7,479 bases of DNA, taken from NCBI GenBank assembly GCA_042217545.1, contig JBDGSM010000035.1, positions 1-7,479 of the forward strand, read 5' to 3'. The position numbers were made by a program, and so were the translations under genes. Numbering within the stretch: the first letter of the stretch is position 1; every line of letters starts with the position of its first letter. The stretch comes from Candidatus Nanohalobium sp. (lineage in GTDB: Archaea; Nanohalarchaeota; Nanosalinia; Nanosalinales; Nanosalinaceae). Shown here piece after piece: positions 3,067 through 6,842 of the stretch. Under the pieces are notes generated by a model. The model did not search any database. It was given only the letters and a program-made list of their open reading frames with translations, and was not told the origin of the DNA.

Positions 3067-3540
3067 CTAGTTACCGAAGCTCTCCAGGATCTTAATCATA
3101 CGGTCGTTCTGCTCGATAATCCTATCCAGTTTATCCTCTAAACCAGAGGTATCGCCGGAAAGACCTTCAGAAGAATTAACGCCAGCATTTCCGCTCTGAG
3201 AGGCCTCTACCTCGTTTCTATCATTTACCTGGTTCTTTGACTGACTTGAAACCTGCTGGCCTCTTTCACGGGTCTGCCTGGTTCTCTGGCTTTTTCCAGA
3301 TCTCTGCTGCCGCTGCTTCGAAGGTGCTTCAGGCCTCAAACCGTCTTCCTCCAGGACCTCGATAGGCGTATCATCGCCGTCCTCCTCTTCCTCCACATCA
3401 TTGTCCTGCGCGGCCTCCCTCAGAGTATCAAAGTTTCCACCGTTACCTGGAGAACTGCTTTCCCCGGAATCCGAGGCCTCTGAGTCCTCATCGCTGTTTT
3501 CCTCTCTTATAGAATCCTTCACGTTGTCATAGTACCCCAT
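3067..3540 (-). CDS. Acidic, intrinsically disordered protein with C-terminal coiled-coil, hypothetical
   Basis: Open 157-aa frame, SD GAAGGTGA 5 nt upstream, 14-bp overlap with the upstream gene. D/E/S/G/Q-rich linker and C-terminal helix 'LEDKLDRIIEQNDRMIKILESF'. Confidence 0.8.
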   Translation of the reverse strand: MGYYDNVKDSIREENSDEDSEASDSGESSSPGNGGNFDTLREAAQDNDVEEEEDGDDTPIEVLEEDGLRPEAPSKQRQQRSGKSQRTRQTRERGQQVSSQSKNQVNDRNEVEASQSGNAGVNSSEGLSGDTSGLEDKLDRIIEQNDRMIKILESFGN

Positions 3541-3892
3541 TCATGTCACCTTCATCCTTCAACTCGGACCTGATGTCCTTAAGTATACTTTTGATCTGCT
3601 TGTTCTGCCTGTGAATATCCTCAAGGCTTACATCACCACTACTGCTTCCTGAACGTGAAGATCTGGAGCTACCGGAGGAGGAACTGCTTCCTGAACCCAT
3701 TCCAGGCAGCATACCCGAAGTATCCTGCTCGGAAGAACCAGAATCGCTGGAATCGCCGCCTGTCAAACGTGCCTCGGCCTCATCCCTCAGGTTCCCGGCT
3801 TCCGCTTCCCCGTTTTCATCAGGTACCGAAAGAGTTACCTCTTCAGTATTCTCATCATCGTCTTTTCCATCTCCACGATCGAAAAAGCCCAT
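3527..3892 (-). CDS. Acidic, Ser/Gly-rich disordered protein with C-terminal coiled-coil, hypothetical
   Basis: ATG at 3892 lies ~23 nt below TTTTATTT (3915-3922, - strand). N-terminus MGFFDR; C-terminal helix 'LEDIHRQNKQIKSILKDIRSELK'. Confidence 0.8.
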   Translation of the reverse strand: MGFFDRGDGKDDDENTEEVTLSVPDENGEAEAGNLRDEAEARLTGGDSSDSGSSEQDTSGMLPGMGSGSSSSSGSSRSSRSGSSSGDVSLEDIHRQNKQIKSILKDIRSELKDEGDMNGVL

Positions 3893-3912
3893 CACATAAG
3901 ATTGGTCAGGCC

Positions 3913-4828: not shown

Positions 4829-5266
4829 ATGAACCAGGACGACCGCACTAAACTTGTAGAGAAAGCGGAGGAAGCTATGCAGAACTCCTACAGGCCTGAT
4901 AGAGGAACAAAAGTCGGGGCCGCAGTCATGACACCAGAAGGAAAGGTTTTCGGAGGCTGCGTGGTCAAGACCGCGAACGAAGGCATGGGAACCTGCGCAG
5001 AAAGATGCGCGATCTACAACGCAGTAGCACACGGAGAACAGTTCTTCACCGCGGTCGCCATAACATCAGAAAAAGACACTTTCTTCAAACCGTGCGGCAT
5101 GTGCATGCAGCTCCTCAACGAGTTCGCACAGCACAGAGAGGAAAACGACATGGATATAGTCATGGCCAACGGCGGAGAGACGGAAACAGTCAAGCTCCAC
5201 GACCTGATACCAGAGACATACGGACCGGAACAGAAATACGAAGATCCCAAGTACGGGACAGACTAG
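4829..5266 (+). CDS. cdd: Cytidine deaminase-family (homotetrameric, 3-Cys Zn) enzyme, divergent
   Basis: 'VGAAV', 'CAERCAI' (C-A-E catalytic motif), 'PCGMCMQLLNEF' and C-terminal 'L.DLIP..Y'. Substrate-binding motifs deviate from the family consensus. Confidence 0.8.
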   Translation: MNQDDRTKLVEKAEEAMQNSYRPDRGTKVGAAVMTPEGKVFGGCVVKTANEGMGTCAERCAIYNAVAHGEQFFTAVAITSEKDTFFKPCGMCMQLLNEFAQHREENDMDIVMANGGETETVKLHDLIPETYGPEQKYEDPKYGTD

Positions 5267-5275
5267 AAAAAGGCC

Positions 5276-6244
5276 TCAGAACAAAATTTCCTGCTGCTGA
5301 ACATGTTTTCTTTCCTCATCAAGAAGTTCCTCCACTTTCTCAGCCAGTCTCTCACCGTATTCTTCTAGATCATCTATTTCTGAAACTGTAAGGCCTGTAC
5401 CCTTCGACTTCGACAACGGCTTACCTTCTTCATCAGCGATCATCGGCGCCAGAAAATAAGCAGGTGTCTCACCGGTAGCCAGCTTAGTGATTTTCGCCAC
5501 TTTCACGATCTTAGACGTCTTCTGCTCCTTCGCCGCATCCCTGTAATCGCCGCCGAACACGTGAACAGAAACATCTCTACTAGGATCACGCACCGGATCC
5601 ACCAGATAATACACACCTATTTTCCCATCAAGCTGGCCGCGCGAGAAACCCTCACCACAGGCCTTATTCCGGCAACTCGCGACAAGTTCTCCCGACTCAG
5701 AGCTATAAGGTGCCCCCTTAGCGTGGGAGAAACCACAGTTGTCACAGACGTTCACGACAGGGCTACGATAACGCCTCCTGAAACCACCGCCGAAGATCTC
5801 ATCAAACTCATCCATATTCTCAAGAACGCTAGACAAGGCCTCACGGTAGCCCTCAGAGTCCAGCTCAGATAAAAAATCGGCCTCAACTTCCTCACCGGTA
5901 AAATTTTCCAGGCCGTCCAGGAAAGGCCTTATCTCCTCCACACGATGCTCCGCGACGTTACCATGCTCGTTACATGGACAGTCCCTCTCGAAGAAAAGCC
6001 GCATAACATCGCTGTTTTCAGGCCTGTGGTTCTCGTGTATATGAGCCGACCAGTCCGTATCACAGCAGAAAAGATCTAATTCAAGGCCTAACCTTGAAGC
6101 GATGACAGAAGAATAAGCCAATGTCAACAGATTCCCGACGTGAAGCTCGCCGGAAGGCCTGAAACCTACGGATAAACGCCTACCTGAGGCCTCGAAAACC
6201 TGAAGTTGTTCGAAACTTGAAGTGATTTGGAAGTCTTCTTTCAT
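5276..6244 (-). CDS. Class I lysyl-tRNA synthetase paralog, catalytic domain only
   Basis: HIGH motif 'PSGELHVGN', KMSKS motif 'KPLSKSKG', LysRS1-type 'CPCNEHGNVAEH' segment, Zn insert 'CDNCG...CRNKAC' and 'FGGDY' (GKDH-equivalent). Ends ~40 aa after KMSKS. ATG 6244 preferred over TTG 6265. Confidence 0.8.
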   Translation of the reverse strand: MKEDFQITSSFEQLQVFEASGRRLSVGFRPSGELHVGNLLTLAYSSVIASRLGLELDLFCCDTDWSAHIHENHRPENSDVMRLFFERDCPCNEHGNVAEHRVEEIRPFLDGLENFTGEEVEADFLSELDSEGYREALSSVLENMDEFDEIFGGGFRRRYRSPVVNVCDNCGFSHAKGAPYSSESGELVASCRNKACGEGFSRGQLDGKIGVYYLVDPVRDPSRDVSVHVFGGDYRDAAKEQKTSKIVKVAKITKLATGETPAYFLAPMIADEEGKPLSKSKGTGLTVSEIDDLEEYGERLAEKVEELLDEERKHVQQQEILF

Positions 6245-6267
6245 ACTTCCAGAAAGGTTGTTCAAGA

Positions 6268-6297
6268 TTCAAAACTTTACTCTGCAAACTTTTTGAA
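6268..6297. promoter_or_regulatory. Back-to-back symmetric TATA-like elements
   Basis: TTCAAAA (6268-6274) and TTTTGAA (6291-6297) form an inverted pair. Each reads TTTTGAA on its own strand and sits 24 nt from its ATG (6244 on -, 6321 on +). Confidence 0.55.
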
Positions 6298-6320: not shown

Positions 6321-6842
6321 ATGATTAAACACTTCTCTAGCACCAGGAACTCTTATAGAGATGAAATCCTCGAAGTCATGGAGAAAAACAACGAGGAGAC
6401 CACGCCATCTATCCAGGAGATGACAAACAAATGGGTAGCAGAAGAAGAGTTAGGCCTGGAAGATGCGGTCGAAAAGTTCTACGAGGAGAGAACAGATCAA
6501 GTACTTCTTTACCATGAAAAAGGCCTTTTGAAGGGATTTTTCCTCCTCGAGGAAAATGATGAGGATCTGAAAGAGAAGATCCCGCAGTACTGGCCACATA
6601 TCGAAGTAGCCCTCGGAATCGTAAAACAAGAATTTAGAGGAAAAGGAATCGCTCAGAGGCTTTTCGAGGAAACAGAGAAAATAATGAATAAGGAAGGCCT
6701 CGAAAACCTGGTATGGGTAACATCTACAGCAAACAAGGCCTCACAGAACTTTGCCCAGAAGCAGGGACTTGAAGAAGCAACAAAATTTTCTGAAGACAGG
6801 GAAGACGACCAGAAAACAGTTATACTTGCCAAAAAGGTTTGA
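6321..6842 (+). CDS. GNAT-family N-acetyltransferase
   Basis: Acetyl-CoA motif A 'VKQEFRGKGIAQRLF' and motif B 'NKASQNFAQKQGL'. Confidence 0.9.
   Translation: MIKHFSSTRNSYRDEILEVMEKNNEETTPSIQEMTNKWVAEEELGLEDAVEKFYEERTDQVLLYHEKGLLKGFFLLEENDEDLKEKIPQYWPHIEVALGIVKQEFRGKGIAQRLFEETEKIMNKEGLENLVWVTSTANKASQNFAQKQGLEEATKFSEDREDDQKTVILAKKV

Follow-up and report, generated by a model that had tools for sequence, protein, structure and literature searches.

A truncated class I lysyl-tRNA synthetase paralog of Nanohaloarchaeota, probably an accessory enzyme with a job other than ordinary lysine charging

Introduction

What is the catalytic domain of a class I lysyl-tRNA synthetase (LysRS1) for, when it comes without an anticodon-binding domain and in a genome that also holds a complete LysRS1? 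The question is raised by a gene on a 7,479-nucleotide stretch of Candidatus Nanohalobium sp. DNA (contig JBDGSM010000035.1 of assembly GCA_042217545.1; the whole stretch is referred to here as the window), which encodes a protein of 322 amino acids (aa) that we call the truncated LysRS1 paralog. Truncated synthetase paralogs with new chemistry are known: GluQRS acts on tRNA, EpmA on EF-P, MshC in mycothiol synthesis, and AsnA makes asparagine. The initial annotation of the window had proposed a stand-alone LysRS1-type catalytic domain with a rebuilt amino-acid pocket, acting on a substrate other than lysine and an acceptor other than tRNA-Lys. Our comparisons of sequences, models and gene neighbourhoods suggest that the protein is probably a functional accessory enzyme, a LysRS1 paralog lacking the anticodon domain, whose job is other than ordinary lysine charging.

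Results

A LysRS1-type catalytic domain that ends after the KMSKS signature

5276..6244, minus strand: coding sequence of the truncated LysRS1 paralog; stop codon at 5276-5278, start common to homologs, same form as in the protein collection.

The coordinates and length given by the initial annotation proved exact, with an ATG at 6244. The reading frame is open over 5276..6265 on the minus strand (329 codons counted from a TTG), and the ATG at 6244 is the start common to 35 aligned orthologs as well as that of the collected protein; judged by this alignment, the in-frame TTG at 6265 (seven more residues) is without homolog support as a start.

The protein falls within Pfam family PF01921 (tRNA-synt_1f): it scores 45.1 bits where 27 are required (E 8.7e-12), and the match spans residues 30-297 and profile positions 25-296 of 360. 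Its scores stay far below the cut-offs of more specific profiles: 24.4 bits of the 147.55 set for the LysRS equivalog TIGR00467 (lysS_arch), 28.1 of 648 for NF001968, and 15.3 of 276.7 for the GluQRS equivalog TIGR03838 (queuosine_YadB). An AlphaFold2 model, built with 35 orthologs, reached a predicted local distance difference test score (pLDDT) of 86 and a predicted template modelling score (pTM) of 0.88. Its best match in the PDB is the Pyrococcus horikoshii LysRS1 structure 1irx, both in Foldseek (E 5.7e-12, template modelling score 0.68) and in the VIA comparison (Z 19.7, root-mean-square deviation 3.3, 273 residues aligned). BshC (4wbd) comes second in VIA, with a Z of 16.6 over 276 aligned residues at 7% identity, ahead of every GluRS and CysRS entry; BshC may thus have an insert of the same topology as LysRS1. 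Further VIA matches are GluRS (Z 12.6), CysRS (about 12), GluQRS 4a91 (12.1 over 213 residues) and MshC 8hfm (11.2). By sequence, neither BshC nor MshC was matched in Pfam or NCBIfam at E ≤ 1, or among PDB chains searched with the family profile.

Searched as a single protein with phmmer, the paralog found nothing significant among PDB sequences (the top entry was a TyrRS at E 0.043), so that a family profile was needed to reach 1irx; the profile of the wider family described below matches the 1irx sequence at E 8.8e-12. We found 159 homologs, and among the 120 listed, lengths are 257-345 aa, identities 56-100%, and the names, where given, mostly nanohaloarchaeal. Given the Pfam and Foldseek E values, the Z of 19.7 and the 159 homologs, the assignment lies beyond chance, and with PF01921 membership and 1irx as top structural match the proposed stand-alone LysRS1-type catalytic domain is borne out.

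Where the initial annotation counted about 40 residues after the KMSKS signature, there are 42. The convergent cytidine deaminase gene (PF00383) ends at 5266, leaving 9 nucleotides to the paralog, and no open reading frame (ORF) for an anticodon-binding domain adjoins the paralog in the window neighbourhood, also as described. A search for a fused or longer form (565-2000 aa) of the paralog found none, although such a search is weak evidence.

Replacement of the positions aligned with the lysine site

To map the pocket, the family was aligned with six canonical LysRS1 proteins, the genome's own included, and with the 1irx sequence. The motifs, all on the minus strand and all included in the 66 columns that are invariant among the 35 orthologs, are as follows.

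6149..6166, minus strand: GFRPSG, residues 27-32, for LysRS1 GI(S/T)PSG; R29 replaces T29 of P. horikoshii LysRS1, and most of the wider family has Arg or Lys here.
6122..6142, minus strand: HVGN (HIGH signature), residues 35-38, followed by LLT, for LysRS1 HIGNFRE; R40-E41 become L40-T41, with Thr or Ser widely found in the family.
6053..6064, minus strand: CDTD, residues 61-64, for LysRS1 WDDYD; CD(L/I)D in the truncated family; opens the nanohaloarchaeal block CDTDWSAHIHE.
5942..5980, minus strand: CPCNEH...AEHR, residues 89-101, the retained counterpart of the LysRS1 DPxGCHxSYAEH block.
5657..5782, minus strand: FRRRY (residues 155-159) and a four-Cys knuckle, CxxC...CxxxxC (C167, C170, C191, C196), from the alignment.
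5585..5608, minus strand: YLVDPVRD, residues 213-220, for LysRS1 WRVDWPMRW (YYLVDPVRD over the aligned stretch); the W of VDWP becomes P.
5543..5557, minus strand: FGGDY, residues 230-234, for LysRS1 GGKDH.
5405..5419, minus strand: PLSKS (KMSKS signature), residues 276-280; canonical KMSKS in non-halophilic relatives.

Relative to LysRS1, the paralog keeps HxGN, SKS, the zinc knuckle and the CHxxxAEH block. The knuckle, with CDNC at residues 167-170 and CRNKAC at 191-196, is a LysRS1-type zinc-binding insert; its four cysteines are invariant among orthologs, as is the basic FRRRY patch, and the nanohaloarchaeal clade has three further invariant Cys/His residues (C61, H68, H70). The intact HIGH and KMSKS signatures and zinc insert of the initial annotation are thus all in place.

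The changes are found elsewhere. We take T29, E41, W218, H240 and Y268 of P. horikoshii LysRS1 to be the lysine site, and the positions aligned with that pocket are replaced throughout the family, in agreement with the rebuilt pocket proposed before; each of the motif changes then listed is seen in the alignment with the own LysRS1, the five others and 1irx. The Y(D/E) before KMSKS in LysRS1 is LA/GP in the paralog and is not conserved across the family, and DPxRD is the best-conserved block of the whole truncated family. Because the pocket Glu is lost (to Thr) and an Arg or Lys is gained at the T29 position, a substrate that is acidic, or at any rate not basic, is plausible.

A constrained gene beside a complete LysRS

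The source genome (1.03 Mb in 82 contigs, 92% complete) encodes its own LysRS1 of 535 aa on another contig (C17), with canonical motifs and a score of 409 bits; the paralog is 21% identical to it. The separate full-length enzyme that the initial annotation had asked after is therefore present, and the paralog is not a split LysRS. A housekeeping LysRS also stands beside the paralog in all five non-halophilic DPANN genomes tested, being class I in two and class II in three, and we rejected the idea of a split or sole LysRS. In the latter three genomes (loci L092, L094 and L091 of G070, G072 and G074) we observed no canonical class I LysRS and instead a bacterial-type class II enzyme, with TIGR00499 scores of 556, 487 and 578 bits. 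Canonical GluRS and AspRS are kept in all five tested genomes.

Against the closest ortholog (87% amino-acid identity), the ratio of nonsynonymous to synonymous substitution rates (dN/dS) is 0.092 at a dS of 1.05; pairs at greater distance have reached saturation at synonymous sites. The paralog is under strong purifying selection. Relatives carry homologs of the same length and no longer form was found, and a decaying pseudogene, for which a ratio near 1 would be expected, was rejected as an explanation.

Patchy distribution within Nanohaloarchaeota

A profile search found the paralog in 28 of the 70 genomes of the phylum, and it is absent from the other 42; among 28 genomes with a completeness of 90% or more, 16 have it, as do 17 of 32 genera. 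Records that carry it include Ca. Nanohalobium constans, Nanohalococcus occultus and Nanohalovita haloferacivicina. It is absent from three closed genomes, one of them (G040) from the genus of the window and the others G032 and G065. In these, the syntenic block from glutaredoxin, NUDIX and OapA/B/C to a 128-aa zinc-ribbon gene (zn128) is intact, and past zn128 the empty site holds unrelated genes (NikR-like, ParB-like, CobW-like), with no remnant or analogue of the paralog there by tblastn at E ≤ 1e-4. On this distribution, the paralog is an accessory and dispensable gene that was recently gained or lost, yet it is strongly constrained where present.

GatB and GatE are found in 68 of the 70 genomes whether or not the paralog is present. 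Near-universal as they are, the paralog is no replacement for them, and phyletic complementarity with the amidotransferases was rejected on the same GatB_N matches.

An old sister family of LysRS1 across DPANN archaea

Searched exhaustively with HMMER, 1.84 billion cluster representatives yielded 69 matches at E ≤ 1e-3, mostly of 310-390 aa and 24-38% identical, in which full-length LysRS1 appeared only at E 1e-6 or weaker. The relatives have in common the motifs G-x-(R/K)-PSG-x-(I/L)-H-x-G, (C/M)-D-(L/I)-D, a CxxC...CxNxxC knuckle, DP-x-RD, H-(V/I)-FGGDY and a canonical KMSKS. Look-alikes include short bacterial clusters named 'lysine--tRNA ligase family protein', with scores of 0.89-0.90. 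A scan with a single peptide pattern (the DPxRD block of a 14-sequence alignment, which misses members divergent there) found 33 loci in species-representative genomes and 40 in metagenome contigs. All 33 genome loci are labelled archaeal, namely Woesearchaeota, Pacearchaeota, Nanoarchaeia, Micrarchaeota, Nanohaloarchaea and Asbonarchaeum, with some labelled 'uncultured archaeon' and one bin Methanosarcinales. The nanohaloarchaeal profile and that of the Woesearchaeota and Pacearchaeota match each other with a probability of 100 (E 4.6e-53, 28% identity over 289 columns).

In a quick maximum-likelihood IQ-TREE of 51 catalytic domains, rooted by the placement of the outgroup only, the six LysRS1 proteins group together (SH-aLRT 96) opposite 42 truncated proteins (89), and the GluRS outgroup has a support of 100. 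The nanohaloarchaeal clade (100) is nested within the truncated family on a long stem of 1.13. By this tree and the profiles, the truncated proteins form what we regard as an old, DPANN-wide sister family of canonical LysRS1. In one micrarchaeotal locus (L078, 7890-9933), an eRF1 gene is followed by two tandem copies of the paralog (347 and 340 aa) that share a strand; the second of them has no Pfam hit at E ≤ 0.001.

Gene neighbourhoods

In Nanohaloarchaeota the paralog stands alone: upstream genes vary, and downstream lies, convergently, the conserved block with OapA/B/C. Outside the halophiles, we compared 28 non-redundant loci, with pairs at least 95% identical merged. Of the 24 loci in which a downstream gene is visible, 7 have a GatB/GatE-family gene directly after the paralog in the same orientation. 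Counted over a distance of three genes, 8 of 28 loci have some Gat gene (B, E or D), 3 have gatD and 2 have aspS; AspRS is nearby in four loci. In 4 of 28, rpS9 at the end of a ribosomal protein operon is the nearest upstream gene. Further neighbours include Kae1/TsaD, aIF5B together with a PUA protein, eRF1, ProRS, a GTPase of DRG type, rpL13 and an asparagine-synthase-domain protein, whose gene lies directly downstream of the paralog in L114. In all, a translation-linked gene occurs within three genes in 18 of the 28 loci.

The paralogs of the Gat-adjacent loci are only 47-53% identical to each other, and the adjacency has therefore outlasted considerable divergence, which is suggestive and not proof. 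At the paralog the 28 loci showed no biosynthetic cluster, and neither aIF5A nor any one candidate protein target was a repeated neighbour; thiol-pathway genes were absent near the paralog in the window, in the nanohaloarchaeal loci and in these 28.

GatB/GatE-family proteins adjoin the paralog in L051 (4400-5863), L052 (9019-10473), L056 (1158-2708) and L104 (6022-7473), and likewise in L107 (4194-5705) and L109 (98-1528). These six proteins have 476-516 aa and weaker GatB_N scores (175-199 bits), and their YqeY tail is weak or missing, in contrast to the canonical GatB of L053 and L055 with 451-456 aa; judged partly on an N-terminal motif, they resemble GatE in a short form and stand next to GatD. 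In six loci of the Woesearchaeota and Pacearchaeota type (L053, 1-358; L055, 7409-7816; L103, L107, L108 and L109), a small, divergent DUF1003 membrane protein (PF06210) is encoded between the paralog and gatD.

Other features of the window

6271..6279, minus strand: A/T-rich TAAAGTTTT, 27-35 nucleotides upstream of the ATG, read from the sequence.

This may be an archaeal TATA-like element. A scan for sigma-70 promoters and terminators gave no promoter-like site and one terminator-like site, below the shuffle mean, with a model that is not meaningful for an archaeon. The sequencing runs listed with the stretch are two DNA runs from one salt-lake study, with no RNA run among those listed. With aragorn, 18 tRNAs were parsed from the fragmented assembly, which permits no argument from the tRNA complement.

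On the flank opposite the deaminase lies a divergent GNAT acetyltransferase gene (6321-6842). In L046 (7553-7982; G041, of the same genus), the cytidine deaminase homolog beside the paralog matches as three overlapping tblastn pieces, which may reflect a frameshift or rearrangement. The other genomes examined have no deaminase at this site. Further away, a GTPase gene (944-1588) is followed by the origin-associated genes OapB (PF09846) and OapC (PF09845), together 944-2376 on the plus strand. This block recurs in synteny in five further nanohaloarchaeal genomes, and on these grounds the window probably lies near a replication origin. At 3067-3895 on the minus strand, a pair of ORFs that overlap (157 and 122 aa) codes for low-complexity, very acidic proteins rich in Ser, Gly, Asp and Glu, without a Pfam match and conserved in position in related genomes.

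Discussion

Likeness to known synthetases and their derivatives

With LysRS1 (LysK; 1irx, PF01921, TIGR00467) the paralog shares the Rossmann catalytic fold, the HxGN and xxSKS signatures, the four-Cys knuckle and the CHxxxAEH block. It differs in lacking the helical anticodon-binding domain at the C-terminus (it has 322 aa, the LysRS1 of its own genome 535 aa, and canonical LysRS1 about 520-540 aa in total), in its low identity and equivalog score, in its replaced pocket positions and separate clade, in being dispensable, and in not being the sole LysRS of its organism. GluQRS (YadB), the glutamyl-queuosine tRNA-Asp synthetase, is alike in consisting of a subclass Ib-type class I catalytic domain that ends shortly after KMSKS (the 4a91 chain has 290 aa), is among the structural matches, and in bacteria is non-essential and patchy, as the paralog is dispensable and patchy. 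Unlike the paralog, GluQRS derives from GluRS and not from LysRS1, and its equivalog profile does not extend to the paralog. Archaea are not known to contain queuosine, which rules out the GluQRS acceptor for the paralog.

The cysteine ligases MshC and BshC, of mycothiol and bacillithiol synthesis, are further class I synthetase-like folds outside translation. BshC differs in its 540 aa and in being 7% identical over the aligned part, and no sequence-level membership of the paralog was found, nor thiol-pathway genes nearby. EpmA (PoxA, GenX), the beta-lysine ligase of EF-P, is likewise a truncated LysRS paralog without an anticodon domain, one turned to a non-tRNA acceptor, according to a 2022 review (PMC9437257). 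It is unlike the present protein in descending from class II LysRS with an unrelated fold, where the paralog has the class I Rossmann fold. The table of synthetase paralogs in that review gives class II derivatives of LysRS only (LysU, PoxA, LysX; PMC9437257), and we found no description of a truncated LysRS1 family in the full-text literature, a corpus that does not cover subscription journals. On present profile and structure comparisons, we place the protein as a member of the PF01921 family yet outside GluQRS and EpmA; membership of the MshC or BshC type, with structural matches but no sequence match, is doubtful.

What the paralog may do

We tentatively favour a tRNA-directed ligase, either GluQRS-like or assisted by a partner, a reading to which we give slightly less than even confidence. 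The enzyme would still form an aminoacyl-adenylate from ATP, with an amino acid other than lysine, and would pass the acyl group to an acceptor recognised without an anticodon-binding domain. The likeliest acceptor would be a tRNA, at a modified nucleoside, as with GluQRS in the anticodon loop, or presented by a partner protein. Class I LysRS, GluRS, GlnRS and ArgRS need tRNA for amino-acid activation, as stated in the review PMC7373986. In view of neighbourhoods that include gatB, gatE and gatD, aspS, ribosomal protein genes, Kae1, aIF5B and eRF1, a tRNA-related or translation-linked acceptor is favoured over, and more likely than, a metabolite. Every part of the initial annotation that could be checked held, and its non-lysine substrate and its acceptor other than tRNA-Lys keep the standing of proposals.

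Several observations weigh against a tRNA-directed ligase. Net charge per residue is -0.078 in the paralog, -0.079 in the catalytic part of LysRS1 and -0.058 at the proteome median; the protein is no less acidic than either and shows no added sign of RNA binding. BshC as the second-best match of the structural model would favour a metabolite ligase. DPANN genomes are dense in translation genes, so that 18 of 28 loci with translation-linked neighbours is probably near background, and the seven Gat-adjacent loci may be a single clade that has kept its synteny. Furthermore, the evidence from context comes only from relatives about 28% identical, and in Nanohaloarchaeota, where the paralog stands alone and its clade has a long branch (1.13), a change of function may have occurred.

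A small-molecule amino-acid ligase in the manner of MshC and BshC would join an amino acid to the amine or hydroxyl of a thiol cofactor, an osmolyte or an envelope precursor. We consider it unlikely, though not negligibly so: like MshC the paralog has a class I catalytic domain and no anticodon domain, the structural matches to BshC and MshC are those given above, the patchy distribution suits a dispensable metabolic trait, and C61, H68 and H70 are invariant in the nanohaloarchaeal clade. Set against this are the lack of a BshC or MshC sequence match in the searches described and the 28 non-halophilic loci, none of which has a biosynthetic cluster and whose neighbours are instead Gat genes, AspRS, ribosomal proteins, Kae1 and translation factors. 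DPANN archaea in general have very little biosynthesis. More doubtful is a mischarging synthetase coupled to Gat enzymes, which would place Glu or Asp on tRNA-Gln or tRNA-Asn while GatDE or GatCAB supplies the tRNA recognition. It would account for the gat and aspS neighbours counted above, for the asparagine-synthase-domain gene of L114, and for a pocket whose charge is reversed (T29 to R/K, E41 to T), and LysRS1 and GluRS are the nearest structural kin. However, canonical GluRS and AspRS are kept in all five tested genomes and GatB and GatE are near-universal in the phylum, so nothing is missing that the paralog would replace, and in Nanohaloarchaeota it is not near gat genes. An equally doubtful variant sets this activity inside a transamidosome-like complex in DPANN archaea; in Nanohaloarchaeota, the scaffold would since have moved on to some kindred task directed at tRNA.

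Two further explanations have still less in their favour. A protein-modifying ligase acting on a translation factor or ribosomal protein, as a class I analogue of EpmA/PoxA on EF-P, is improbable: no adjacency to aIF5A or to a single target recurs in the 28 loci, and we know of no class I synthetase paralog that acylates a protein. The neighbours aIF5B, eRF1, rpS9 and rpL13 speak for it, and so does the precedent of a class II LysRS paralog that modifies EF-P, as recounted in PMC9437257. Least probable of all, in our estimate, is an auxiliary or second lysine enzyme that works with the full-length LysRS or an RNA-binding partner, a non-catalytic regulator, or a remnant. The intact HIGH and KMSKS signatures and the JGI label 'lysyl-tRNA synthetase class I' on several members would fit such a role, as would the precedent of LysRS1 and LysRS2, which act together on tRNA-Pyl. 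Family-wide replacement of the positions aligned with the lysine pocket, a score far under the equivalog cut-off and a clade separate from LysRS1 all argue against it, and the dN/dS of 0.09 excludes decay.

Implications

DPANN gene sets are very small, and each enzyme that they retain is therefore informative. The substrate of the truncated LysRS1 paralog could reveal a new tRNA modification, a new route in indirect Gln/Asn aminoacylation or a new aminoacyl-transfer reaction, and the Gat-coupled reading, if true, would be an unseen way to the misacylated intermediates of indirect Gln/Asn formation in DPANN archaea. Because cultured members carry the paralog, the question is testable. Its answer would show how evolution has re-engineered the lysine pocket in the rarer of the two LysRS classes.

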